Shown here: piece by piece, positions 2,779 through 15,424 of the stretch | How the letters are laid out: each line of letters begins with the position of its first letter | Position numbering within the stretch: position 1 is the stretch's first letter | Origin: a virus | Taxonomy: Duplodnaviria > Caudoviricetes | Length of the DNA: 26,184 nt | Reading direction: 5' to 3' (one strand) | IMG/VR virus record: IMGVR_UViG_3300048895_000139 | Span: 1 to 26,184 of that record | Program-made: the position numbers and the translations under genes | The notes under the pieces: model-generated | The model's database searches: none | What the model was told of the DNA's origin: nothing | Seen by the model: only the letters and a program-made list of their open reading frames with translations

Positions 2779-3031
2779 CGTCAGGCCTCGCGGCTGGAGG
2801 GTCCGAAGGGTGGGGCAACGGATCGGCCCCCAGCACCGCCCTGAAGGCGTTGACCGCGTCGCCCGCCTCGTCATCGGTCTGCACGGCCATTTCGCCCATA
2901 CGCTGATAGAGCAGCGGCGGGGTGTTCGGCGGCAGGGCTCGATAGGCGCACTGCCAGCGCGTCGCGACGGCGACCTTCGTCACCACGGCTTCGAGCAGGT
3001 AGAGCATGGCGTCGCGGTCAGCGTCAGTCAT
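2771..3031 (-). CDS. hypothetical protein (86 aa)
   Basis: Start moved to ATG 3031 (ATGA overlap, GGAGG RBS). Confidence 0.65.
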   Translation of the reverse strand: MTDADRDAMLYLLEAVVTKVAVATRWQCAYRALPPNTPPLLYQRMGEMAVQTDDEAGDAVNAFRAVLGADPLPHPSDPPAARPDDA

Positions 3032-4197
3032 GCCGCCTCCTGCTCCTTGGCCGTCCACATCGGCTCCGGCCATTCGACGCCCAGGCCGCGCCAGTAGGAC
3101 ATCGCCGCCCGAACGAACTCGACCGACTGTTTCATCTGCTCGGCGATGGCCTTCGGGCCGTGGCCCTTCAGCCGGAGGTCCCGAACCTCGATCCGCGACG
3201 CCTCGTAGGCTTCAAGGCTTTTGAAGCCCCATTTCTTCGCGGCGATGATCCGCGCCGCCTGCGCGCTGGCCGGGCCGTTTTTGTTGCCGGGCTTGGACGG
3301 CGGCAGCAGGGAGGCTTTGACCGGTTCAGGCGTCGGTTCTTGCGCCTCGTCGTCGCGGCCTAGCAGCGCCTTGGCCTCGGCGGCGTAGTGCGCTGACTGC
3401 GCTTCGCTCATCAGGCTTCGACCGACCTTGGCCAGGAGCCCGTAAACCTGAAAGGCGCTGATCCTCATGTCGATCGAGACCTTGACCGGCTTCTCGCCCG
3501 CATCGATCCGCCGGAGGACTTCGTAGCGTTGGGCGATGTACTGCCGGAGCGTCATGTTGTGCCGGGCGGCGGCGTTGGACATCGTCGTGTGGGACCGGCT
3601 GTCGAGCGGGCCGATCCCGGCCATGGAGCCCTCGGCCTTGACCGACAGTGTCGGAAGCAGCTTCGGGTTATCCCAGATCGGCGAGGCGGGGTCTTCCCAC
3701 CAGTACGGGGGCGGCGGGATGGGCACCCCTTCGAGCTTCCGGCCCTTTCGCGGGTCGCCCTTGGCCTTGCTCTTGGTCTTGGCGTTTCCCGGCTTAACGA
3801 TCGCGTCGCCTGGAAACTCTAGCCCGCCCTCTTTTCGAGCCTTGTTCTTGAGCCGCTCGACCAGCCCGACTGAAGACCCGAGGTCGGCGGCGATCGAGGC
3901 CGACGCCTCGCCACGCAGCGCCCGTTCGATGATCTGGCCCTCGGCGCTGGCCGACTTCAGGTCCTCGGTGAACGGGCTCGCTAGGCGTTTCGGAGCCGCT
4001 GGAGCGAGCCGCTCCGGTTGCCCCGCTCCGAAAGGGGCGTCTGCGATCCAGCCGCAATGTCGGGCGATGACCTGAACGTGCGTGACCGCGCTGTCCCGAA
4101 GCTCGCCCGGCGGGATGGCCGAGAACGCTTCCACCAATTCAGCCGCGCCAGGGAGCGCGAAGAACTGGGCCATTTGCAGGGGATCAATGCGCGACAT
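3028..4197 (-). CDS. putative multi-HTH DNA-binding protein (389 aa) with an N-terminal segment resembling the C-terminal domain of alphaproteobacterial XRE regulators
   Basis: AGGAG RBS. Three HTH-like segments: IIERALRGEASASIAADLGSSVGLV, VLRRIDAGEKPVKVSIDMRISAFQV, VRDLRLKGHGPKAIAEQMKQSVEFV. The ORF is solid; the function is inferred. Confidence 0.7.
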   Translation of the reverse strand: MSRIDPLQMAQFFALPGAAELVEAFSAIPPGELRDSAVTHVQVIARHCGWIADAPFGAGQPERLAPAAPKRLASPFTEDLKSASAEGQIIERALRGEASASIAADLGSSVGLVERLKNKARKEGGLEFPGDAIVKPGNAKTKSKAKGDPRKGRKLEGVPIPPPPYWWEDPASPIWDNPKLLPTLSVKAEGSMAGIGPLDSRSHTTMSNAAARHNMTLRQYIAQRYEVLRRIDAGEKPVKVSIDMRISAFQVYGLLAKVGRSLMSEAQSAHYAAEAKALLGRDDEAQEPTPEPVKASLLPPSKPGNKNGPASAQAARIIAAKKWGFKSLEAYEASRIEVRDLRLKGHGPKAIAEQMKQSVEFVRAAMSYWRGLGVEWPEPMWTAKEQEAA

Positions 4198-4576
4198 GGA
4201 CGCGCTCCTCCTGGCTGCGCTTGATCGACCTTACAGGCTTCTCGGCCTGCTTCGGGGCGGCGGTCGGAGCCCAGGTCTTCGTCCATCCGCAGGCCATGGC
4301 GACGATTGTCATGGTGTAGTTCTGAGGTCGTCTGACTGAGCCGTAGAGCCAGCCCATGATCGTGTAACGGGAGACCTTGTGGCCGAGCTTTTCGGTCTCA
4401 TGCTCGATGTCCTCGGGGGACATGCCGGTCTCGCCGATTATGCCCACGATGAGGTCCATGTCCGGGTCTTTGTCCAACCACGAGTAAGCGAAGTAGTTCG
4501 GCGTGGTGGGGATGAAGTTCGGCCGACGAGGGGCGGCGCGCTGAGACTTTTTGGTGTAACCCGACTGATCTGACAC
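4184..4576 (-). CDS. putative XRE/Cro-like HTH protein (130 aa)
   Basis: GMSPEDIEHET...VSRYTIMGWLYGSVRRPQNYTMTIVAMACG fits the XRE pattern; GTG start with GGAG upstream. Confidence 0.65.
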   Translation of the reverse strand: MSDQSGYTKKSQRAAPRRPNFIPTTPNYFAYSWLDKDPDMDLIVGIIGETGMSPEDIEHETEKLGHKVSRYTIMGWLYGSVRRPQNYTMTIVAMACGWTKTWAPTAAPKQAEKPVRSIKRSQEERVHVAH

Positions 4577-4599: not shown

Positions 4600-4615
4600 G
4601 GGCGAACTTTCGCCC
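4600..4615. promoter_or_regulatory. palindromic operator-like site GGGCGAA-CT-TTCGCCC
   Basis: Its 12-bp core is the reverse complement of GCGAAAGTTCGC at 7952-7963 and 7987-7998. Confidence 0.7.
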
Positions 4616-4718: not shown

Positions 4719-4934
4719 TTAAAGGCGCTTAGTCGGAGCCCCTCCGGCGGCGTTTTTATGCTTGTCGCAGTAAGCAGACTTCACCGCCCTCGACTCACCG
4801 CAGACGACCATGTCGGCCCCCGCGCCGGAGATTGGCCACAGGCACAGCCGCCCGGCGGCTTCGATGAACGGGACGCCAGGAAGCCGAGCGGCCTCGGGGC
4901 GGATCGGGGCGGGTCGGTGGCCATGATGGCTCAT
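4719..4934 (-). CDS. gcrA: GcrA-like protein, C-terminal Cys/His domain only (71 aa)
   Basis: CLWPISG...CGESRAVKSAYCDKH matches the GcrA C-terminal pattern CxWPxG...CG....xYCxxH; the N-terminal HTH is absent. Confidence 0.75.
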   Translation of the reverse strand: MSHHGHRPAPIRPEAARLPGVPFIEAAGRLCLWPISGAGADMVVCGESRAVKSAYCDKHKNAAGGAPTKRL

Positions 4935-5200: not shown

Positions 5201-5359
5201 AGGGGTCGTTTTTGGGGGTCGAAAAAGGGGGGTGAAAGATTGAAGTGAAAGATTGCTGAAGTCGTGGAAAAACCGACACTTAGCTTTTCATGTTCCTAGC
5301 CTGTTCCGCCAATCTTTCACTTCTTTCACCCCTATAGAGAGGGGGCCGGTGAAAGATTG
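5193..5359. repeat. iteron array GTGAAAGATTG, putative replication origin
   Basis: Full copies at 5232-5242 (+), 5245-5255 (+), 5310-5320 (-), 5349-5359 (+); partial TCTTTCAC at 5193-5200 and 5322-5329; relatively AT-rich; directly downstream of the primase-helicase. Confidence 0.75.
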
Positions 5360-5362
5360 GCC

Positions 5363-7186
5363 CTAGTCGTCGTCCTTTTCGTCGGTTCGTGGGCGGAACG
5401 GGACCACGACATCGCCGTCGATCTCGGTCTCGGGCAGGCCGTATTTCCCCCGCCCGGCCTTGATGACTTCGCCAGCCTTGAGCATTCGGAAAAGCTGCAC
5501 ATCGACCACGCTGCGCTTCAGCCCGGTCTGGGAGGCGATCTCGCTGACGGTCATGAACCAGCCCGCGTCGCGCATGTGCCGGATGATCTTCCGCCGGTTC
5601 TCAGAGGTGCGGTTCTCGCCCGCCTCGCCGAGCAAGGACCAGCGGCAGCTTTCCTTCTCGAATTTCATGGCCATCTCGAACTCTTCGATGTCGCGGCCCC
5701 GGCCCTTGAAGACCGTCGCGCCCTCGGCTTGGCGTTCGAGAACCATGACCGCGTCGCATCCGCCGGTCAGGCCGTTCGTGCCGCTGATGCTTTCGAGGTA
5801 GTCGTCGGCGGCGGACTTGCGGGTGTGGTGGATCAGAATAATTGCGATCCCGAACTCGCCCGCGAGCCGCTGAAGGGTGGTCGCCGATCTGTAATCATAG
5901 CTGTAAGGGTCTTCGTCGCGGTTCCGGTCGGGGCGGATATAGTTCAGCGTGTCGATGATAATCATGCGCGGTTTGGGCTTGGACTTCAGCCAGTCCCGCA
6001 GCCGGTCCTCGCAGCCGTTCCCGAGCCGGGGAAGGTCGTCGCCGAACCAGACCGTCAACCGCTCCGGCGCGCGCTTGGCCAGTTGGCAGACGATCTGAAG
6101 CCGGGACTTCATCCGGCGCGGGCTGTCTTCCAGGGCGCAATACAGGACATCGCCCTCGGCGCACTTCTGATCGCCCAGCGTGAAGCCGCCGGTCGCCACC
6201 GCGCAACACAGGTCCAGGGCGAGCCACGACTTGCCGCGCTTCGGAGCCCCGGCCAGGAGCGTCAGCCCCTCGGCGATGTAGCCTGGCACCGCGAAGTTGA
6301 TCGGGGGAAAGACCATGTTCCACAGGTCCGTCGCCCGGTACCCGCGAGGCGGCGGTCCCTCATCCATCATTTCGATGGTCGCCGGGTCGCCCCCGGCCGC
6401 GAGGAAGTCGTAGACATCGCCCCCGGAGGCCAGCCCTGGCAGATGAATGACCCTGACCGAGGCCGCGACACCTTCGAGGTTCTTTTTGACCTTGGCGGCG
6501 TGTTTCTGGCCCGGCTCGTCGTTGTCGGCCAGGACGATGACCTTCGCGCCCTCGAACCACTTGGCGAAATGATCCGGCCACTTGCCCGCGCCCCCCGGCG
6601 AACAGGTCGCCGGGTATCCGGTGCCGATCAAGGAGAGCGCGCCCTTCTCGCCCTCGGTGATGAACACCGTCCGGCCCAGCGCTATGGCTTCGATCAGGTC
6701 GCCCAGGCGGAACGGGACCTTGTCCGCGTCCGCGATCCCGCCCCAGTCCCAGCCGCCGCGACCGTCGGGCTTCTGCTGTAGGAATTTCTTCGCCTTGGTC
6801 CGGTTTACCAACAGGACCGGCGCGCCCTCGGCGTCGGCGTACTCGTATTTCGCCACGATCGGATCGCGGGGATTGCTGGCCTTGCCGTTCCCCGGCTTGA
6901 AGGCGGGGAGGCCAAGCTCGGCCCGCGCCCAGTCCTTAAGCCGGATCGGGTCGTCATCCTTCGGCGAGAAGGACAGGACCCAGAACCCGCCCGAGGCGTC
7001 GTCGTCCAGGCCGATCGTCAGCGAGGCGTCGCCCGCCGAATGGTCCGGGCCGGGACAGCGGACAACCTGCTGGCCCTTGTCGTCCACGCCGATCTTGCCT
7101 TTGAGCCGGGCGGCGATGTCCGCGAGCGAAAGCCGAGGCCGGAAAGGCTCGATGGTTCCGTCATCCCTGCCGTTGCCCAGTGCCAT
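5363..7186 (-). CDS. DNA primase-helicase (TOPRIM + RepA/AAA_25-type helicase, C-terminal winged helix)
   Basis: TOPRIM motifs ITEGEKGA and LADNDEPG; Walker A GAPKRGKS; Walker B IIIDTL; IHHTRK; SGT; C-terminal MTVSEIASQTGLKRSVV. Confidence 0.92.
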   Translation of the reverse strand: MALGNGRDDGTIEPFRPRLSLADIAARLKGKIGVDDKGQQVVRCPGPDHSAGDASLTIGLDDDASGGFWVLSFSPKDDDPIRLKDWARAELGLPAFKPGNGKASNPRDPIVAKYEYADAEGAPVLLVNRTKAKKFLQQKPDGRGGWDWGGIADADKVPFRLGDLIEAIALGRTVFITEGEKGALSLIGTGYPATCSPGGAGKWPDHFAKWFEGAKVIVLADNDEPGQKHAAKVKKNLEGVAASVRVIHLPGLASGGDVYDFLAAGGDPATIEMMDEGPPPRGYRATDLWNMVFPPINFAVPGYIAEGLTLLAGAPKRGKSWLALDLCCAVATGGFTLGDQKCAEGDVLYCALEDSPRRMKSRLQIVCQLAKRAPERLTVWFGDDLPRLGNGCEDRLRDWLKSKPKPRMIIIDTLNYIRPDRNRDEDPYSYDYRSATTLQRLAGEFGIAIILIHHTRKSAADDYLESISGTNGLTGGCDAVMVLERQAEGATVFKGRGRDIEEFEMAMKFEKESCRWSLLGEAGENRTSENRRKIIRHMRDAGWFMTVSEIASQTGLKRSVVDVQLFRMLKAGEVIKAGRGKYGLPETEIDGDVVVPFRPRTDEKDDD

Positions 7187-7196
7187 CGCCGGAACC

Positions 7197-7709
7197 TCAC
7201 GCTGATTGTTGGACTTGGCGCACCGGGAGCCGGTTCGCGCCGTGCAGCGCGATCAGCGCCGCCTCGGCCCGGCCGTGGTCTTTGACCCGCGACCATTGAT
7301 CGGACCACTTGGGGAAGATCGCCGACGCCCGGACCCGGCTGGCGTCCTTGTCCCCGGTTACGCGGAGCGCCTGTTTCCAGCCCGCCGCTGTGACCGTTTC
7401 CGTGGGGATGAAGTTCGCCGCCAGGACGCCGCGAACGATCCCTAGGCCCATCCAGAACGTCGCGGCCCCCACGCGCCCGTTCTGGGGCCGCACGCCGCCC
7501 TGTTCGATGATCGCGGCGGCGAGGGGTTCACCGGCCACGGTCAGCCGGGCGTCGATCTCGCGGGCGAGGCTGTAGGCGTCGAGGTGCGAGCGCTTGCCGA
7601 TCATCTGGGTCGGGATGTCGAGGCATTCCAGGGCGACCGGCAGGCCGTCCACGATCGTCAGGAAGCAGAGCGCGCCCGTGCTGCCTGGATCGATCCCAAG
7701 GACCCGCAC
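7197..7709 (-). CDS. RuvC-like Holliday junction resolvase
   Basis: VLGIDPGSTGA, IIEQ, WKQAL, KDASR, DHGRAEAALIA. Confidence 0.88.
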   Translation of the reverse strand: MRVLGIDPGSTGALCFLTIVDGLPVALECLDIPTQMIGKRSHLDAYSLAREIDARLTVAGEPLAAAIIEQGGVRPQNGRVGAATFWMGLGIVRGVLAANFIPTETVTAAGWKQALRVTGDKDASRVRASAIFPKWSDQWSRVKDHGRAEAALIALHGANRLPVRQVQQSA

Positions 7710-7713
7710 GGCG

Positions 7714-7920
7714 TCACGCGGCCGAGGACGAACGGGCGTCGATGCGCTCGGCGGCGGCGATCAGCTTCAAGCAGGTGGGCAGGCTCTTCAGTTCCCAATC
7801 GCGGTCGCGGAACGACCGGACCGTGGTGATCGGGATACCGGCCTCGCGCGCCAGACGCGCCGGACCAACCCGCGCCGCGACGGCGGCGACCCGCCTCATG
7901 CCTTCGTCAAGGTTTTCCAT
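7714..7920 (-). CDS. Cro-like HTH regulator (68 aa)
   Basis: GPARLAREAGIPITTVRSF HTH; first gene of the leftward operon at the divergence point. Confidence 0.8.
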   Translation of the reverse strand: MENLDEGMRRVAAVAARVGPARLAREAGIPITTVRSFRDRDWELKSLPTCLKLIAAAERIDARSSSAA

Positions 7921-7949
7921 GGTTGCGCTTGCTACTCATCTAAACCGGG

Positions 7950-8000
7950 AGGCGAAAGTTCGCCTTGACGGGCTCTAAATACAAGAGCGAAAGTTCGCTC
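7950..8000. promoter_or_regulatory. divergent control region: two palindromic operator-like sites flanking a rightward -35 (TTGACG)
   Basis: AGGCGAA-AG-TTCGCCT at 7950-7965, TTGACG at 7965-7970, GAGCGAA-AG-TTCGCTC at 7985-8000, which covers the expected -10. Confidence 0.75.
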
Positions 8001-8025
8001 CCTGGTTAAACCCCGAGAATTCGCC

Positions 8026-8346
8026 ATGCAAGGACATGCTGACCACTACGGCCTAAGGGTAATCCCTGATGCGGGTGCTTCACCGGCATCAGGTGAACAC
8101 CCTAGAACGGCGACGAATACTGACCGTCAACCTGTCCAGCGGCGTCCAGTGGCGTCCAGCGGCGTCCAGAAATGCGAAGTCTGCGGCGGCGAAGCTGAAG
8201 GCAAGCGGGTCAACCGCGAAATGCGGGACGAGACCGGCATGACGGTCTGCAAAGCCTGCATCGACGAGGCGCTGTGCCTGCTGTGCGCGTCGCCGCCCCT
8301 GGCCCGGCTGATCGCCCGCATCATTTCGGAGCGGCCCCATGGTTGA
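8026..8346 (+). CDS. small C4 zinc-finger protein (CxxC-x21-CxxC); true start may be GTG 8149
   Basis: CEVC...CKAC; the 5' part overlaps the hairpin and repeats and looks non-coding. Confidence 0.55.
   Translation: MQGHADHYGLRVIPDAGASPASGEHPRTATNTDRQPVQRRPVASSGVQKCEVCGGEAEGKRVNREMRDETGMTVCKACIDEALCLLCASPPLARLIARIISERPHG
8056..8103. other. long imperfect hairpin in the leader of the rightward early operon
   Basis: AGGGT..CCTGATGC-G-GGTG-CTT-CACC-G-GCATCAGG..ACCCT. Confidence 0.55.
8132..8169 (+). repeat. 10-bp tandem repeat (GTCCAGYGGC) x ~4
   Basis: ctgtccagc ggcgtccagt ggcgtccagc ggcgtccag; reverse complement of the repeats at 12029-12057 and 12094-12118. Confidence 0.85.
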
Positions 8347-8626
8347 CCCCGGCCCAACCAAGCCCCGGCCCGCGCCGGAGCCCGACCCCCGCTTCGCCCG
8401 CGTGCCGCTGATCCGGCAGGCCTGGGCGCTCACTGTTCCGAAGGGTGCGCCCATGAACGGCAGGATCACCATCCTGGAGAACAAGTACGGCGGGCGGGTC
8501 ACGCTCCAAGAGGGCGACCTGTCCGAGCGATCCGTCGAACTGAACGTCATCGAGCTTCGCGCCCTGGCCGACCATGCCAACCGGATCGCCCGCCGCGTCG
8601 CCAGCCGCCCGGAGTACCGGCCATGA
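8339..8626 (+). CDS. hypothetical protein (start 8339 or 8453)
   Basis: ATGA coupling to the ERF gene. Confidence 0.55.
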   Translation: MVDPGPTKPRPAPEPDPRFARVPLIRQAWALTVPKGAPMNGRITILENKYGGRVTLQEGDLSERSVELNVIELRALADHANRIARRVASRPEYRP

Positions 8627-9303
8627 GCGCAATCGAGACGACCGCCGATATCGGCGAACTGGCCAAGGCGCTCCCCGCCGCCCAGGCCGCAATCGCCAAG
8701 ATCACGAAGGACACGGCGAACACCCACTTTAACAGCCGCTATGCGAGCCTGACCGAGATCGCCGAGGCGATCCTCCCGGCCATGAACGCCAACGGGTTCT
8801 CCGTCATCCAGGGCGTCACCGCCGCGCCGAACGCGGGCGTTCAGGTCACGACCCGCCTGTTGCACACCTCGGCGCAATGGATGGAGGCGACCCACTTCGT
8901 CCCCGTCAGCCGCCAGGACGCGCAAGGTGTCGGCTCGGCCCTGACCTATGCCCGGCGGCAAGCCCTTCAGGCCTTCTTCACGGTAGCGCCAGCGGGCGAA
9001 GACGATGACGGCGAGGGCGCTGTAGGGCGCGGGGCCGGACGGCCGCCCTTGAACCCCGGAGGGCCGCCCAGCACGCCACCGAAGACCCAGCGCCCGGCGC
9101 GGGTGGCCCGGCTCGAAAAGACCCTGACCGACGTGAAGACCATCGCGGACCTGACCCGCGCCTGGGACCTCGCGAAGGCGCTGCGGGCTGAACTCGCGGC
9201 CGAGGAGCCGGAGACGGCGAAGCGCCTGGACGCCCTGCACAAGGCCAGGAGCGACGCGCTGCTCGGCGGCGACTTCGATCCGGCGACGGGAGAGGTCCGA
9301 TGA
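8623..9303 (+). CDS. erf: ERF-family single-strand annealing protein
   Basis: NTHFNSRYASL, QGVGSALTYARRQAL, EDDDG. Confidence 0.9.
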   Translation: MSAIETTADIGELAKALPAAQAAIAKITKDTANTHFNSRYASLTEIAEAILPAMNANGFSVIQGVTAAPNAGVQVTTRLLHTSAQWMEATHFVPVSRQDAQGVGSALTYARRQALQAFFTVAPAGEDDDGEGAVGRGAGRPPLNPGGPPSTPPKTQRPARVARLEKTLTDVKTIADLTRAWDLAKALRAELAAEEPETAKRLDALHKARSDALLGGDFDPATGEVR

Positions 9304-9926
9304 TCCAGCAAGGCACCTCCGATTGGCACGCCCAGCGCTGCGGCAAGGCGACCGCCAGCCGCATCGCCGACATCATCGCCAAGACCAAGACCGGCCCGAG
9401 CGCGTCGCGGCTGAACTACCGGGCCGAACTGATCGCCGAGCGGCTGACCGGCGTCACCGCCCCGAGCTTCACGTCCGGCCCGATGCAATGGGGCCTGGAC
9501 CACGAAGCCGAGGCGCGGGCGCTCTACGCCGACCGCTGCGGCCTGCTCGTCACCGAAGCCGAGTTCGTGGATCACCCCGAGATCGCTTGGTCGGGCGCAA
9601 GCCCTGACGGCCACGTCGAAGACGGCCTGGTTGAGATCAAGTGCCCGAACACCGCGACCCATATCGACACGCTCCTGGGCGCGCCGATCGACGGGCGGCA
9701 CGTCACTCAGATGCAGTGGCAGATGGCCTGCACCGGGGCGGCGTGGTGCGATTACGTCTCGTTCGATCCGCGCCTGCCGCCGTCCATGCAGCTGCATGTT
9801 CAGCGGGTTCACCGGGACCTGACGATGATCCTCGGCCTCGAAGACGAGGTGTCGGCCTTCCTCGAAGAGATCGAGGAGCGGGTCGCCAAGCTGACGGCCA
9901 TCTACGGTCGCCAGGAGGCCGCGTAG
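9300..9926 (+). CDS. YqaJ/lambda-exonuclease family protein
   Basis: QGTSDWHAQRCGKATAS, MQWG..HE..AR, GASPDG, EIKCP, QMQWQM. Confidence 0.93.
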   Translation: MIQQGTSDWHAQRCGKATASRIADIIAKTKTGPSASRLNYRAELIAERLTGVTAPSFTSGPMQWGLDHEAEARALYADRCGLLVTEAEFVDHPEIAWSGASPDGHVEDGLVEIKCPNTATHIDTLLGAPIDGRHVTQMQWQMACTGAAWCDYVSFDPRLPPSMQLHVQRVHRDLTMILGLEDEVSAFLEEIEERVAKLTAIYGRQEAA

Positions 9927-10316
9927 ATGGCCCAGGCGGCGATCAGGCTGACCGACATCGCCGCGCGCCGTGACGCCGTTTCCTGGGTCTGGGGATCGGA
10001 GCCGGAGACGATTGTCCGGTTCGAGACGCCGGGCAAGCGGACGGCCAAACAGAACGCCGCGATGTGGGCCATGCTGACCGACATCGCCGAACAGGTGTCC
10101 TGGGGCAACCAGCAGTTGACGCCGGACGATTGGAAGCTGCTTTTTCTAGCCGACATGGACCGGGGCTCGCGCATGGCCCCGGCCCTGGACGGTCGCGGGT
10201 GGGTGAACCTCAACACCTCGTCCAGCGCCCTGAAGGTCGCCGAATTCGAACAGCTTCTCGACGCTATCCACAAGTTCGCCGCCGCCCACGGCGTGATGTT
10301 CAGGGCAGGGTTCTAA
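9927..10316 (+). CDS. ninB: NinB (lambda Orf) family recombination protein
   Basis: RTAKQNAAMWAMLTDIAEQVSW...DDWKLLF...EFEQLLDAIHKFAAAHGV. Confidence 0.85.
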   Translation: MAQAAIRLTDIAARRDAVSWVWGSEPETIVRFETPGKRTAKQNAAMWAMLTDIAEQVSWGNQQLTPDDWKLLFLADMDRGSRMAPALDGRGWVNLNTSSSALKVAEFEQLLDAIHKFAAAHGVMFRAGF

Positions 10317-10350: not shown

Positions 10351-10587
10351 GTGATGGTTGAGGCTAACGATTTGCTTCCGGCCGACCGGCCGCTCTACAC
10401 GATCCCCGAAGCCGCCAAGGCGCTGCGGATCAGCCGCTCGACGGTGTACGAGCTTCTCAGCGCAGGCCGTCTCCGAAAGGTCAAGGTGGGGTATCTCTCC
10501 TTGATCCGCCGGGACGACCTCGCCGACTTCATCAACTCGGCTTCGTCAGGCGGCGAAGCGCAACACCTGACCGGTGGTAAGCACTGA
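10351..10587 (+). CDS. xis: excisionase / recombination directionality factor (HTH_17-like)
   Basis: LYTIPEAAKALRISRSTVYELLSAGRL...IRRDDLADFI; AGGAG RBS; convergent with the integrase. Confidence 0.88.
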   Translation: MMVEANDLLPADRPLYTIPEAAKALRISRSTVYELLSAGRLRKVKVGYLSLIRRDDLADFINSASSGGEAQHLTGGKH

Positions 10588-11976
10588 CGCCTCGTCGCGG
10601 ACCGGCGCGGCCTTCCGGGGCCGGTCGGTGCCGTCGATGAACGCCGACCATTCCCGCATGACGATCTTGCGCTGACCGAGCAGCGGGTCCTCGCCGTTGT
10701 TGGCGTAGGAGCCCAGCGCGGCCGAGTGCCGGGCCTTGCCGTCTTCGTTGCCCGTAGAGGCCCCGATCAGATGGCCGATCGCCCGGTCCATCAGCGAAAG
10801 CTCGAAGGGCGGGTGGTTCCGGTGCGGGATGGCGATCCCCCAGGCCACGAACGACGAGCGGAAGCCGTGAACGGTGATGTCGTTGTTCAGCAGCTTGACC
10901 CGCTCAAGGACCGCGTTCGTGGTGTACGGCTGAACCGGGCAACCCGCCCGACGCCAGACCGGGGCGTTGCGGAACATTCCCATTCCAGGGAACAGCAAGT
11001 CGGTCGGCTTGAAGTCGGTCCGGTTCACAGCGGCGCGGCGCAGGACCCGGAGCATCCCCAAGGACAGCGGGACCATGAACGGCTTAGCGACCTTGGCGTC
11101 CTTGTTCCGCTCGGTCTTCAGGCGCTCCGGCGGGATGATCCAGAGGCGGCGCTTCCAATCGATCTCCGACCACGTCGCCCCGCAGGCCTCGTTGACCCGG
11201 CACCCGGCCAAGATCGTCCACTCCGCGATCCGCGCCGCCATGGTGCAGTCCTGGCGAAGCCGAGCCACGAAGGCCGGGACATCCTTGAACGGCAGAGAGG
11301 GGCGGTGTTCCTCATGGTGGGGCTTGTTGCCGAGCATGATGCAGAGCGCCGCGAAGTCGGCCGGGTTCTGCCAGTAGGGAGCGTCGCGGCGCTGCATGAC
11401 GTGCCGGTGCTTGAACAGCCGGGCCAGGGCTCCTGTGATCCGCTTGGCTGAGGGCGACGGCCGCTGATCCTTCCAATAGCGACGAAGCGCCGCCTCGACG
11501 TGGCTGGTCTGGATGGCGTCGATTTTCATCCGGGCCAGGGAGCCGACGCGGACGGTCACGTCGCGGAACCAGGGCGCGGCCTCGATCCCCTTGGCCTTGG
11601 CGATCTCTAGCTCGCGGGGCGGGGCAAGCCGCGCGAAGTGGGCGCGGGCGTATTCCTCCAGGGTGGGGTTCGCCTTGCCTCCGGTTTCGCGGGCGGCGGC
11701 GGGATCGACCCGCTCATCGAGAAGCGCGGCGTTCGCGTCCCTCCAAGCCCTCGCCTCGGCCAAGGACACGTCGCGGGGATAGGCTCCCTCGTGCCAGATG
11801 CTCTTGGTCTTTCCCGCGAAGGCGTAGCGGTAGAGGAACCGCGCCCGCCCGGCTTCGGTGACGACGAGGACCAGGCCGTCGCCGTCGTTGAACCGTTCGG
11901 TGGCTTGATCTTTCTGCGCCTTGGCGACCGCTTCGCGCAGCCGAAGGTCGTTAAGTTGGTTCTGTTTCGCGGCCAT
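10546..11976 (-). CDS. int: tyrosine integrase, P4-like, with N-terminal arm-binding domain (476 aa)
   Basis: Start moved to ATG 11976. DGDGLVLVV..FLYRY arm domain; catalytic R (GCRVNE), K (LKT), HGFR, GH, Y (GSYA). Confidence 0.93.
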   Translation of the reverse strand: MAAKQNQLNDLRLREAVAKAQKDQATERFNDGDGLVLVVTEAGRARFLYRYAFAGKTKSIWHEGAYPRDVSLAEARAWRDANAALLDERVDPAAARETGGKANPTLEEYARAHFARLAPPRELEIAKAKGIEAAPWFRDVTVRVGSLARMKIDAIQTSHVEAALRRYWKDQRPSPSAKRITGALARLFKHRHVMQRRDAPYWQNPADFAALCIMLGNKPHHEEHRPSLPFKDVPAFVARLRQDCTMAARIAEWTILAGCRVNEACGATWSEIDWKRRLWIIPPERLKTERNKDAKVAKPFMVPLSLGMLRVLRRAAVNRTDFKPTDLLFPGMGMFRNAPVWRRAGCPVQPYTTNAVLERVKLLNNDITVHGFRSSFVAWGIAIPHRNHPPFELSLMDRAIGHLIGASTGNEDGKARHSAALGSYANNGEDPLLGQRKIVMREWSAFIDGTDRPRKAAPVRDEASVLTTGQVLRFAA

Positions 11977-11991
11977 ATCCGTGATGATCCC

Positions 11992-12303
11992 TGCATACAA
12001 AAACGTGCGTACATTTTGCCACGACGTGGCTGGACGCCAGTGGACGCCACCGGACAGTGAAATCAACCAGGGCCTTGTACGGTAAGGGAAAGTTGGACGC
12101 CGCTGGACGCCGCTGGACTACTGGCGAGGGTTGGCCAGGTACCTGGGCCAGGCCAAGCTAACCCGTTTTGGTGATTGAATAATCTCAGCGGCTCCAAAAT
12201 CCCTAGGGACAGAAAATGCGAACAGCGGAGGAAACCGCGCGAACGGGGGGTGCGGCATCATGCCGCTCCTCTCCTAAGTTGTGAGCATGATTGCACACAC
12301 TTT
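11992..12303. mobile_element. putative attP region
   Basis: Arm-like repeats TGCATACA (11992), TGCGTACA (12006), TGCACACA (12292); 10-bp repeats TGGACGCCRS at 12031-12055 and 12094-12118; palindrome CCAGGTACCTGG at 12135-12146; phage genes on both sides. Confidence 0.65.
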
Positions 12304-12306
12304 TGA

Positions 12307-12340
12307 TTGCAATTTCCACTGAAGCCGTTACAACGGTTTC
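12307..12340 (+). promoter_or_regulatory. putative promoter of the accessory block with an inverted repeat over the -10
   Basis: TTGCAA 12307-12312, 16 bp, TACAAC 12329-12334; GAAGCCGTT-AC-AACGGTTTC 12321-12340. Confidence 0.5.
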
Positions 12341-12373
12341 AGAAGATTTGCACAACCCACCGAGAAAGACCCC

Positions 12374-12715
12374 ATGACCACCGAGACCAAAACCCGCGCC
12401 GAAAAGATCGCCGCCGCCATCGCCGATGTCGAAGCCTCCCGCGCCGAATTCATCGCCGCCCTGAACCCCGACGATCAGAGCATGGTCATCGCCTACGAGA
12501 ACGGCCTTTGCGTCGGCATCGGCTCGAACGGAAAGTGCGGGATCGTCGGCCCGATCGCCGCGCCCCTGGCCGAGGTGATCGAGCGCATCGGCACCGCCCG
12601 GAACGGCCACGGCGAGATCGCCAAGCGCCGCCGCCGCCAGGACGTGATCGCCCAGCGGGTCGCCGAATGCGAGCAATCGATCCAGATGTTCCGCGACATG
12701 GAGGCGGGCCAATGA
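12374..12715 (+). CDS. hypothetical protein (113 aa)
   Basis: ATG start, strong C-ending codon bias, ATGA coupling to the next gene. Confidence 0.75.
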   Translation: MTTETKTRAEKIAAAIADVEASRAEFIAALNPDDQSMVIAYENGLCVGIGSNGKCGIVGPIAAPLAEVIERIGTARNGHGEIAKRRRRQDVIAQRVAECEQSIQMFRDMEAGQ

Positions 12716-13377
12716 AGGTGGTCGCCTCCAAGTCCAACCCGCCCGAGGTTCAGGTCCGCGAGGCTTGGCTCCTGGCCCTGGCCGTCGAGTTCATGCGCGA
12801 GATTGAAGACCGCTGCGGCCTGACCTTTCCGCCGGTCCGCGTCACCTGCGGCTTCCCCAGCAAAGGCGGGGAAATGGGCCGTTCCACGCGGGTTCGCGGC
12901 CAATGCTGGTCGGCTGAAGCCTCGGAAGATCGCCACGCGGAAATCTTCATTTCCCCGGTGGAAGCCGAAGCCGAAACCGTCGCCGCGATCCTGGCGCACG
13001 AACTTGTTCACGCCGCCCTGCCCGACGCCGGGCATGGCAAGACGTTCAGCAAGGCGATGAAAGCGCTGGGGCATGTCAAGCCGTTCACCACGGCGACGCC
13101 TACGGATGATTTCTGGGAATGGGTTCGGCCGCTGCTGGCCGACGCCGGGCCGTATCCGCACGCGATGCTGGTCGCCATGCGCCCGGTCGCCGCCCCGAAG
13201 AAACAGGCGAACCGGATGATAAAGCTGTGCTGCCCGGATTGCGGTTACACGGTTCGCACCGCCCGCAAGTGGATCGTGGAGGTCGGCCTGCCGATCTGCC
13301 CGAAGGACATGGTCAAGATGACCGGCGAGGGCTTGGACGGCGAAGACCCCGACGAACTAGAGGAGGAGGCCGCATGA
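12712..13377 (+). CDS. SprT-like zinc metalloprotease with C-terminal zinc ribbon (221 aa)
   Basis: Start moved to ATG 12712 (GGAGG). LAHELVH (HExxH), GHGKTF, CPDCGYTVR...ICP. Confidence 0.85.
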   Translation: MKVVASKSNPPEVQVREAWLLALAVEFMREIEDRCGLTFPPVRVTCGFPSKGGEMGRSTRVRGQCWSAEASEDRHAEIFISPVEAEAETVAAILAHELVHAALPDAGHGKTFSKAMKALGHVKPFTTATPTDDFWEWVRPLLADAGPYPHAMLVAMRPVAAPKKQANRMIKLCCPDCGYTVRTARKWIVEVGLPICPKDMVKMTGEGLDGEDPDELEEEAA

Positions 13378-13619
13378 CACCCGGCCAAGCCCGGAAGATC
13401 GTCTGGCGGCGATTGACCGAGGCCAGGAACCTCAAGAACCGGATTGACGCCGGGCGGGCCTTCCCTTGGGAGCCCGCCCGGCTATCGGCGCTGGTGGCCG
13501 AGGCGCGGCTATATCACCGGCTTGCGCGATCCGCCGCAGCGCCCACTGTCTTGGCGACGGTTGCAAGCGGCTTTACACACAAAGCTGCATTCATCCACCC
13601 CAGGAGACGAACCCTATGA
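13374..13619 (+). CDS. hypothetical basic protein (81 aa)
   Basis: GGAGGAGG RBS, ATGA overlaps at both ends. Confidence 0.55.
   Translation: MTPGQARKIVWRRLTEARNLKNRIDAGRAFPWEPARLSALVAEARLYHRLARSAAAPTVLATVASGFTHKAAFIHPRRRTL
13561..13592 (+). promoter_or_regulatory. putative internal promoter with operator, upstream of the RHH gene
   Basis: TTGCAA 13561-13566 followed by inverted repeat GCGGCTTT-ACACAC-AAAGCTGC 13567-13588; AGGAGA RBS at 13602. Confidence 0.5.
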
Positions 13620-13828
13620 CCCGCCCCTCGACCCGCGTCAGACTGCCGCCGCCGGAGCCGCTTGATCCGCTGTCGGTGCAGATCGCGACCCGCATGACCC
13701 CGGCCAGCCGGGAGGCGATCCGGCAGCTTGCCGAACAGAAAGGCGTCAGCCTCCAGGCCCTCGGGGTCTATGCGTGGTCGCTGGTTCTGGACGCCTACGG
13801 CAAGCCGCCGCTGCCGGAGGCCCGCTGA
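13616..13828 (+). CDS. ribbon-helix-helix DNA-binding protein (70 aa)
   Basis: Start at ATG 13616; VQIATRM strand, then TPASREAIRQLAEQKG and SLQALGVYAWSLVLDAYG helices. Confidence 0.75.
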   Translation: MTRPSTRVRLPPPEPLDPLSVQIATRMTPASREAIRQLAEQKGVSLQALGVYAWSLVLDAYGKPPLPEAR

Positions 13829-14328
13829 TGGACGACATGACCGTCGAAGAGATCGCGGACATGCTCGCCAAGCAGCACGCGGCCTTCTACGCCGCGAACC
13901 CGAAGTCGGAAATTCCGCACCACTGTCTGATCTTCACCGAGGGCGGCGACAGCTTCGTCGTGGACTGCGGCTGGTCCAGCGCCCAGGAGCGGAGCGCGAT
14001 GCTCGACGCCCTGGCGGCGCTGATGGCGTCGATGCACGCCGTCCGTTACGCGATCTCTTCCGAGGCCTGGATGGTCATGCGGAAGACCACGGACCCCGCG
14101 CCGTACCTCGCCAATTACAAGCACGGCGACGCGGCCAAGAACCCCGAACGGGTAGAGGTGGTCACAACCCTGGTGGTTGATATCTCGGGGAAGATCGCGA
14201 ACCGCTTTCAGGAGATCGTCCGGGACCGGCGCGGCCGGGTCGTGGCGCTGAAGCCCGTCCTCGGTGAGGACGGCATGGCCGGGGCGGGCGCGATGTCCGA
14301 GCTACTGCCGCGCCGGTCGGTCCACTGA
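13828..14328 (+). CDS. hypothetical protein (166 aa)
   Basis: Start at ATG 13828; TGATG coupling at both ends. Confidence 0.75.
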   Translation: MDDMTVEEIADMLAKQHAAFYAANPKSEIPHHCLIFTEGGDSFVVDCGWSSAQERSAMLDALAALMASMHAVRYAISSEAWMVMRKTTDPAPYLANYKHGDAAKNPERVEVVTTLVVDISGKIANRFQEIVRDRRGRVVALKPVLGEDGMAGAGAMSELLPRRSVH

Positions 14329-14981
14329 TGGCCGACGCCCTCGCAGCGATCCGGGCCAGGAGAGCCGAACGGTTGCGTTCAAGGCTGACGCCCGCCCGAT
14401 CCTGCGACGGCTGCGATCTCTGCTGCACCGCGCCGGGGATCAAGGAAATGGACAAGCCGCCCGGCGAGCCCTGCAAGAACCTGTGCGGTGAGCCCGGCCG
14501 GTCCTGTTCGATCTATTCGAAGCGCCCGCCGGTCTGTGTCGAGTTCCACTGCCTGTGGCGTCTGACCGAGGCGATCTTGCCGTCTTGGCTGCGGCCCGCC
14601 GACTGTGGGTTCATGCTCTCGTTCAACCGCCACGACCAATGGCCGGGCGTCATCACCGCACACGTCGATCCGGCCCGGCCGGACGCTTGGCGCAACCAGT
14701 GGGCCATGACCGTCTTTGCCGAGATCGCCGGGGCCTGGAACTGCCTCGTGGCGGTCGGCCAATCGCCGGGGTGCGTGGCGATCTTCTGCCCGAACGGGAC
14801 CAAGATCGAGCTAGGGGATTACACGCCGGAGGAGCGGGCGGTCTTGGTCGGCGCGGACGGCTGGGTCGGCGCGCCGGACTACGTCTTCGGCCCTGACCGG
14901 CGTCCGCTTTCGGAGCGGATACCGGAAGCCGAATTCTCCTGGGGATTGCCCTTGCCGCCGTGGGCCGGAGGAACGCCATGA
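14328..14981 (+). CDS. CxxCxxCC (YkgJ-like) cysteine-cluster protein, long form
   Basis: CDGCDLCC...PC...CSIYSKRPPVCVEFHCLW, then RPADCG. Confidence 0.85.
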   Translation: MADALAAIRARRAERLRSRLTPARSCDGCDLCCTAPGIKEMDKPPGEPCKNLCGEPGRSCSIYSKRPPVCVEFHCLWRLTEAILPSWLRPADCGFMLSFNRHDQWPGVITAHVDPARPDAWRNQWAMTVFAEIAGAWNCLVAVGQSPGCVAIFCPNGTKIELGDYTPEERAVLVGADGWVGAPDYVFGPDRRPLSERIPEAEFSWGLPLPPWAGGTP

Positions 14982-15424
14982 CCACCGTCATCGACATCAG
15001 GGCTGGCGGGCGCTCCCTGTTCGCCCACGTCCCCGAATGCGCGAACTGTCCCGGCACCTGCTGCAAGGGCGACACGATCGTCCTGTTTCCCGAGTACGGC
15101 GACAACCCGCCGCTCTACGACACCCAGCTGATCGGCGAGGACCCGAAGACCGGCCAGCCGATCCTGGCGCTCAAGCACAAGCCGAACGGCGACTGCGCTT
15201 ACCTGACCGAGGTCGGGGGCGTCGGCCGCTGCTCGGTCTACCTGAACCGGCCGGTGGTCTGCCGCAGCTTCGATTGCGGTCAGCAATACGCCCAGACCAG
15301 CCGGGCTGAACGCCGCCGGATGGTCCGCGAAGGGATCGCCGACCCCGCGACCTTTGAACGGGGTCGGCAGGTTCATGAGGCCCGAGCCGCCAGGAAGGCC
15401 CAGGAAGGCCCGGAAGGGTCCTAG
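14978..15424 (+). CDS. CxxCxxCC (YkgJ-like) cysteine-cluster protein, short form
   Basis: Start at ATG 14978; CANCPGTCC...GDCAYL...CSVYLNRPVVCRSFDC. Confidence 0.85.
   Translation: MTTVIDIRAGGRSLFAHVPECANCPGTCCKGDTIVLFPEYGDNPPLYDTQLIGEDPKTGQPILALKHKPNGDCAYLTEVGGVGRCSVYLNRPVVCRSFDCGQQYAQTSRAERRRMVREGIADPATFERGRQVHEARAARKAQEGPEGS

Follow-up and report, generated by a model that had tools for sequence, protein, structure and literature searches.

Anatomy of a CI-less lambdoid switch: a single small Cro protein and its putative operators in a clade of integrase-bearing phages

Whether lysogeny can be both maintained and ended by a single small repressor is an old question. In textbooks, the model of a bistable decision is the two-repressor switch, with Cro as its pro-lytic half, and the lambdoid CI/Cro immunity region is known from lambda, 434 and P22. 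The DNA studied here, a 26,184-nt stretch that makes up the entire record and is hereafter called the window, comes from a GC-rich tailed phage. It represents a diverged natural clade that combines an integration module with Cro alone, which opens the question to testing. The original prediction described an integrase-bearing phage with only a Cro-sized HTH protein at the switch and no CI. That description is confirmed and extends to 15 loci, and the int and xis genes, the hairpin, the repeats, the palindromes and the small zinc finger in the cI position were all found in the sequence (Table 1).

To the left of the switch, the gene order is a 68-aa ORF, a RuvC-like resolvase, a primase-helicase, a GcrA-like gene, a 130-aa HTH gene and a 389-aa HTH gene. 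To the right are a zinc-finger ORF, erf, yqaJ, ninB and xis, followed by a convergent tyrosine integrase gene. The GcrA-like gene and a GTA-type tail chaperone suggest an alphaproteobacterial host; the GcrA C-terminal-like gene (4719-4934) varies in orientation among relatives. Two cysteine-rich genes of the CxxCxxCC type (phrog_9155; 14328-15424 in the window) recur at varying places in relatives. Several relatives encode DNA-modification genes near the terminase (L046:682-1617, L072:13392-15406, L044:12874-15424), their types including a TET-associated glycosyltransferase, radical SAM, C5 methylase and QueC-like proteins, and a DUF6456 gene near the terminase (L072:11539-12102) is a possible late activator.

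Table 1. Features of the switch region and of its target and integration modules in the window.
Feature	Position	Strand	Comment
389-aa multi-HTH protein	3028-4197	-	coupled to the 130-aa gene; candidate lytic activator
130-aa XRE-like HTH protein	4184-4576	-	highly conserved; downstream of O3
Operator O3 (putative)	4602-4613	.	perfect copy; the 130-aa HTH gene starts 26 nt downstream
Likely replication origin	5232-5359	.	GTGAAAGATTG repeats, direct and inverted, immediately behind the primase gene; putative role
Primase-helicase with C-terminal HTH	5363-7186	-	in the cro operon
RuvC-like resolvase	7197-7709	-	begins 4 nt past the cro stop
cro, proposed sole repressor	7714-7920	-	68-aa Cro/C1-type HTH; mRNA likely leaderless, beginning at the start codon
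Candidate -10 TAGCAA, leaderless cro promoter	7929-7934	-	TA upstream of the cro ATG
Operator O1 (putative), GCGAAAGTTCGC	7952-7963	.	spans the leaderless promoter's -35 region as well as the -10 of the upstream cro promoter
Putative -35 TTGACG, recombination/xis operon promoter	7965-7970	+	TTGAC directly after O1 in CI-less loci
Candidate -35 TTGTAT, upstream cro promoter with -10 inside O1	7979-7984	-	from aligned upstream regions; putative
Operator O2 (putative), GCGAAAGTTCGC	7987-7998	.	over the -10/start region of the recombination/xis promoter
Weak operator-like site	8013-8024	.	overlaps the ribosome-binding region of the zinc-finger gene; 1-2 mismatches there in 7 loci
C4 zinc-finger ORF, 106 aa (C50, C53, C75, C78)	8026-8346	+	divergent from cro, in the seat of cI; accessory
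Hairpin	8065-8093	.	real in the window phage, not conserved
Direct repeats of 10-bp period, GTCCAG unit	8134-8169	+	match the attP repeats; likely Xis sites
erf, yqaJ exonuclease, ninB	8623-10316	+	recombination genes, operon behind O2
xis (HTH_17 excisionase)	10351-10587	+	last gene behind O2; profile matches
Tyrosine integrase, 476 aa	10546-11976	-	R260, K287, H370, R373, H402 and Y424 present
Arm-type-like repeat pair	11993-12013	-	just upstream of int; putative role, from the same layout in relatives
GTCCAG repeat, two clusters	12032-12055, 12095-12118	-	attP/int promoter region; likely Xis sites

The record is estimated to be only 38% complete, and the absence of CI therefore had to be demonstrated in relatives. 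Peptidase_S24 is absent from the window at E<=10, in agreement with the earlier observation that it encodes no S24 repressor. Extended beyond the window, the PF00717 search gave no match in 11 records with the 68-aa protein, including G004 (96% complete), G005 (100%) and the circular G010 (100%), and it recovered the CI of G014 as a control (E 6e-4). No CI gene is present between the 68-aa gene and the divergent recombination/xis operon in any of the 15 loci (window included), and in all of them ruvC directly follows cro with no cII-like gene between; for L067, only 264 bp upstream of cro are available, and the start of the zinc-finger ORF is visible there. Five CI queries from relatives, one of them out of frame, had no match in CI-less loci. 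HTH_3 matches in G001, G002 and G005 are distant from the switch and not common to the clade; none was found in G003, G004 or G010. A Pfam scan of 70 of the 87 called ORFs of G010 revealed no repressor; almost all of the 17 omitted ORFs belong to the structural block. That a repressor lies beyond the window, a possibility left open before, is unlikely, since a complete circular relative has the same switch and neither an S24 nor an HTH_3 candidate. We conclude that the absence of CI is genuine and clade-wide. These counts leave aside the distant RuvC loci L002-L026 as well as L060, a Cro homologue that has neither clade neighbours nor a clear start; L032, which holds a Cro fragment only, was counted for O3 alone. 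The clade is diverse: its primases are 57-71% identical to that of the window, and its integrases are mostly 25-56% identical among themselves.

The seat that is empty here is occupied in two sister phages (G008 and G009), where recombination genes, cI, cro, ruvC and primase are found and cI encodes an HTH_3 repressor of 186-210 aa. The yqaJ, ruvC and primase genes of L057 are 63-71% identical to those of these sisters, yet its switch is CI-less, which argues that the switch moved as a module. Loss of CI by deletion between the right and left operators appears to be the simplest origin, a proposal made without a tree.

The 68-aa protein itself has no Pfam or PHROG match, and its HTH nature is deduced from a structure model and from its protein family. 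The AlphaFold2 model (pLDDT 92) has four helices; its Foldseek matches are XRE-type proteins, none of which reaches E 0.001, with C.AhdI and C.BclI as weak top matches. A profile search with the family yielded 101 proteins, mostly of 60-100 aa. All three distant homologues in this set of loci (L062-L064) lie opposite canonical CI repressors and are accompanied by similar CGAA-type sites; S24 exceeded the cut-off for one of the three repressors. Because distant homologues oppose canonical CIs and sister phages carry CI in the empty seat, the 68-aa protein is identified as a true Cro.

The promoter assignments rest on conservation, since a sigma-70 consensus scan of positions 7600-8700 identified no promoter or terminator. 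In 13 of the 15 CI-less loci and in 3/3 CI-bearing ones, a TA dinucleotide lies at -12 to -14 relative to the cro ATG, compared with 15 of 382 called ORFs; this points to a leaderless transcript. The candidate upstream cro promoter would also give a leaderless start in L052 and L066.

The palindrome GCGAA-N2-TTCGC has three perfect copies in the window, two at the switch and one at 4602, versus a mean of 0.47 and a maximum of 2 perfect 12-mers in 60 Markov-3 simulations. The copy at 4602-4613 (O3) had been overlooked earlier. O1 and O2 are spaced by 34-36 bp and TTGAC follows O1, so that divergent putative promoters are overlapped by common palindromic operators. Over 18 sequence sets, 32 perfect 12-mers were found: 17 at the switch, nine before the 130-aa gene, two before the operon beyond attP and four elsewhere. 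The 52.9 kb of G010 contain exactly three CGAANNTTCG sites, namely O1, O2 and O3. Some members have extra operators at other promoters (L052 5023, L066 1276, G002 23330 and G003 26365). A perfect Cro-type operator also lies inside attP, adjoining an arm site (L069:595), and another within the start of a primase gene (G003 21428). The weak operator-like site at 8013-8024 may simply be the ribosome-binding site.

Distribution and variation of these sites point to their binder. O3 is present in 10/10 loci having both Cro and the 130-aa HTH gene (nine perfect copies and one with a single mismatch) and absent in 3/3 loci with the 130-aa HTH gene but without a detectable Cro of this family; two of these three carry their own full-size repressor and integrase. 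O3 also covaries with the switch operator, being of the CCGAA type in G001 and the ACGAA type in G004, and these two members with altered operators show altered residues in Cro helix 3. Tyrosine at the second position of helix 3 accompanies ACGAA in L053 and L062-L064; L057 is an exception, with Tyr in helix 3 but a GTGAA-type site. O1 is degenerate in L059 and L057. Co-occurrence and co-variation, seen in few related sequences, make it likely that Cro binds O1, O2 and O3. The 130-aa HTH protein is an unlikely binder, as its recognition helix is identical between phages whose operators differ and the site is absent where this Cro is missing. Host LexA was also rejected: its alpha-type box occurs 0-2 times per stretch and in no common place. 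Neither an SOS box nor an antirepressor was found in the clade stretches scanned.

The position of O1 bears on how Cro would act on its own gene. Its centre lies at -41.5 to -43.5 relative to the leaderless promoter in 9 of 15 loci, alongside a poor -35; lambda OR2 is placed alike relative to PRM. Elsewhere, it is found at -35.5 (window), at -21.5 (L058) or over the -10 (L052 and L066), and it is degenerate in two loci. The operator of CI-bearing homologues overlaps the core of the leaderless cro promoter, and helix 2 of Cro lacks acidic residues at what we take to be the positions of the activating patch of lambda CI. Self-activation from O1 is thus possible for part of the clade and not a general feature; at -35.5, as in the window, repression seems more likely than activation.

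The genes behind cro are closely packed, with gaps of 4 nt between cro and ruvC and 10 nt between ruvC and the primase-helicase gene. Origin-like repeats linked to cro and the primase-helicase gene were observed in 8/8 loci inspected, and, besides the window, they lie directly after the primase gene in L027, L028, L029, L030, L032, L052 and L066. The repeat unit varies between phages, with AAAGATTG, AAAGTTT and TAAGAAAC types, and these varied units provide a test set for origin recognition by the C-terminal HTH of the primase. The genes for the 130-aa and 389-aa HTH proteins, downstream of O3, are always adjacent, in CI-less and CI-bearing phages alike, and the former is the most constrained gene measured (dN/dS 0.075). 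The pair is possibly a middle or late activator module. We rejected the 130-aa protein as a displaced CI, since G008 and G009 encode it along with a full-size repressor.

A full-length integrase is encoded in 11/11 loci that reach the int position, that of the window having PF00589 and Arm-DNA-bind_3 domains; the catalytic set is kept in 10/10 aligned integrases (in G004, Gln takes the place of the second His), and the one close pair, L052/L066, has a dN/dS of 0.27. The attP region is unsplit in every locus reaching it. In the window, attP (12120-12300) has no evident distal repeat cluster and arm pair of the kind seen in G001, L052, L066 and L069, and no tRNA-like core was recognised there by eye; it may be rearranged or diverged. 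A conserved ribbon-helix-helix protein (13616-13828) is encoded in the operon beyond attP; the TGCAA-type direct repeats that precede this operon (window 12280-12310) may serve as its operator. The operon beyond attP also contains an Imm_superinfect gene (PF14373) in L047:5763-6020, L050:10101-10301 and L074:1541-1816, and none was seen in the window. The superinfection-exclusion gene found beyond attP in G004, G005 and G010 could supply part of immunity.

The repeats in the leader match those at the attachment site of the same phage. The GTCCAG clusters beside int had been overlooked earlier. When leader and att repeat words were compared over 10 phages, the diagonal score was 95, against a permutation mean of 17.6 (0/100000 permutations). 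Leader and att repeats clearly match in the window, G001, L052, L066 and L069, of which L052 and L066 are close kin, and weakly in L054; there is no match in 4 of the 10 scored phages (G003, G004, G005 and L068). Leader and att repeats of G010 match by eye, and its leader is non-coding. The orientation of the repeats relative to transcription varies between phages, which together with the non-coding leader of G010 indicates that the repeats are DNA sites. Two xis-like genes were found in G003, G004 and L068 (L043:17074-17444; L047:10228-10506 and 13838-14080; L068:3902-4265). Their presence in three of the four mismatching phages suggests swapped int/xis modules. Xis probably binds the leader as feedback on its own operon, and most likely it brakes both this operon and int. 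Regulation by Xis of its own operon is reportedly the subject of a study on Gifsy-1.

These elements can be combined into a scheme in which Cro would bind CGAA-N2-TTCG palindromes as the only repressor of a lambda-type switch devoid of CI and CII. At high levels, Cro would close O2 and block the strong TTGAC promoter, so that neither Xis nor the recombination genes are made, and would close O3, shutting off the 130-aa and 389-aa HTH regulators that would be needed for lytic growth. The int gene would be driven by its own promoter, a target of repression by Xis at attP; through the repeats at 8134-8169, Xis would in addition act as a brake on the operon that encodes it. The amount of Cro would be set at O1. 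Int would then integrate the phage and Cro would hold the prophage quiet, and a low level of Cro would lead to Xis synthesis, excision and expression of lytic genes. That Cro is the immunity repressor and that Int integrates by default when Xis is off is, on these sequence patterns, a reading we consider just as apt to prove right as wrong. Among the options for immunity named in the original prediction, the small HTH protein is the best supported; RNA, Xis and proteolysis are much less likely. A bolder version is tentative, and we rather doubt it: after deletion of CI and CII, Cro as immunity repressor would activate its own leaderless promoter from O1, its action at O2 and O3 would silence the operons for excision and for the lytic regulators, and the 300-bp module could move into other backbones, replacing cI-cro.

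The main weakness of the Cro model is that the primase gene and the likely origin share the cro operon and that no prophage was found. With ruvC, the primase-helicase gene and the likely origin behind cro, a lysogen that makes Cro would also transcribe replication genes, which raises the question of how these are kept off. In lambda, a Cro-making state with the replication genes on kills unless O/P are defective. The model would need replication to depend on the O3 operon, or on levels that autoregulated Cro forbids. As to the prophage, a single genome scan for a prophage or host gave one spurious 18-residue match in Frigoribacterium, which was discarded. Contigs of sequencing run X1, a possible source of the window, are identical to it over 5233-9113 and 10676-12815 and contained no attL/attR joint; contigs drop rare forms. 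No match for Cro or the 130-aa HTH protein was found among cultured phages, to which the primase is only ~30% identical, and a single-sequence scan of viral contigs gave no relative.

Cro might instead be a lytic throttle only, damping early promoters late in infection, with dormancy imposed by a host silencer or by a phage protein that escapes HTH and S24 searches. Cro retains the lytic seat ahead of the replication genes, some members have its operators at additional promoters as would suit a global brake, and many small ORFs belong to no family. We nevertheless find this unlikely: no other regulator is both conserved and confined to the CI-less clade, given that the 130-aa HTH protein is shared with the CI-bearing sisters and the HTH_3 matches are not clade-wide, and the operator varies with the phage's own Cro, contrary to what a host binder would produce.

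It is also rather improbable that cro, ruvC, primase and origin form a self-limiting replicon like lambda dv, maintained by Cro autorepression as a low-copy carrier state with integration secondary or unstable. The linkage of Cro, primase-helicase and repeat-rich origin-like region in the eight loci inspected would fit such a replicon, as would an O1 that overlaps the core of the cro promoter (window, L052, L058 and L066) and the unsplit state of all attP regions; virion-derived contigs, however, would show unsplit attP too. Against this reading, the members whose sequence extends to them have retained integrase, xis and matched attP repeats (repeat match in 6 of 10 scored), and a plasmid search with one query, the 130-aa HTH protein, found no relative.

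Immunity could be borrowed, with integration only into hosts where a related prophage is already resident and supplies a CI that binds these operators. CI-bearing phages with a homologous Cro do use ACGAA-type sites, close to those of the clade; the age and diversity of the clade and the way operator variants follow its own Cro make this very unlikely.

We give still less credence to immunity through a P4-like leader RNA, Xis or proteolysis controlled by the zinc finger. The leader of the window has a fold z of -2.7 and its repeats are real, but z falls below -2 in only 2 of 14 leaders and an Rfam search brought no family near threshold, so the structured leader once proposed as a possible seat of RNA immunity is not supported. 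The zinc-finger ORF is missing in 4 of 15 loci (G004, G005, G010 and L057), is nearly neutral in the one close pair (dN/dS 0.82) and has no fold match: the model of its L069 homologue (pTM 0.42) gave a best Foldseek E of 3.7, to generic zinc fingers. The zinc finger is dispensable and the hairpin unconserved, which leaves RNA immunity unsupported. A ClpX-like or DksA/TraR-like role of the zinc finger gained no support, with no ClpX row in the profile search and zf-dskA_traR at E 3.3 in one member. Many Cro proteins of the clade end in Ala-Ala or x-Ala; the idea of a C-terminal degron was dropped, as the Ala-Ala end also occurs in the CI-bearing phage L064, and proteolysis has no specific support. 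Xis lies behind O2 and would excise the prophage, which speaks against it as an immunity factor. Finally, a conventional CI in the missing 62% of the genome, conceivable for a record this incomplete, is scarcely credible given three near-complete or complete relatives with the same switch and without CI.

The locus resembles the lambdoid switch in its back-to-back putative promoters with common palindromic operators, in the position of cro before replication genes, and in the placement of recombination genes and xis on the opposite arm with int beyond. It differs from it in the lack of cI and cII, in early promoters ~100 bp apart and in a third operator 3.3 kb off, before another regulator operon. 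Lambda dv plasmids and the Cro-dominated anti-immune lambda cI mutants are laboratory derivatives; as in these, Cro without CI would autoregulate an operon with replication genes and an origin, but the arrangement described here is natural, clade-wide and tied to a maintained integration module. P4, the immunity of which relies on CI RNA, likewise has no CI-type repressor, and it shares a similar integrase domain set and a primase-helicase with a C-terminal HTH; the clade, unlike P4, has no conserved leader structure or Rfam match and possesses protein-type palindromic operators that track Cro.

Dual-function excisionases include 186 Apl, P2 Cox, P4 Vis and the KplE1 RDF, and their mark is a set of repeats spaced by one helical turn that occurs both at att and at a second, distant site (PMC7498355); RdfS of ICEMlSym provides a further comparison (PMC11963761). 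As in these five systems, att of the clade and a remote regulatory site carry direct repeats spaced by 10-11 bp, with repeats beside the int promoter. The clade departs from them in that xis of the window is the last gene of the recombination operon rather than the first lytic gene; the distant repeats are located downstream of O2, 140-180 bp into the transcribed region, and not between face-to-face promoters; and a separate Cro is present. The restriction-modification controller C.PvuII, whose activating box lies just upstream of the -35 of a leaderless promoter (PMC2175313), is likewise a small XRE-fold protein, that fold being modelled in our case. In both systems, although with candidate promoters in ours, an operator precedes the -35 of a leaderless promoter, and a weak promoter further upstream has a -10 that falls within the operator region; operator sequence and context differ, and the geometry that would allow activation is confined to 9 of 15 loci, the window not among them.

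The anatomy of this CI-less lambdoid switch is well supported, its mechanism less so. No description of natural, CI-less lysogeny held by Cro was found in the literature searched by titles and abstract starts, a coverage that stops short of subscription journals, and silencing of the early promoters by Cro alone, its likely role here, would be an undescribed route to phage dormancy. The parts are tiny, ~300 bp plus three 12-bp sites, and the natural variants of operator and helix are suited to tests of specificity. For genome annotation, lifestyle calls based on CI would misjudge the phages of this CI-less clade.
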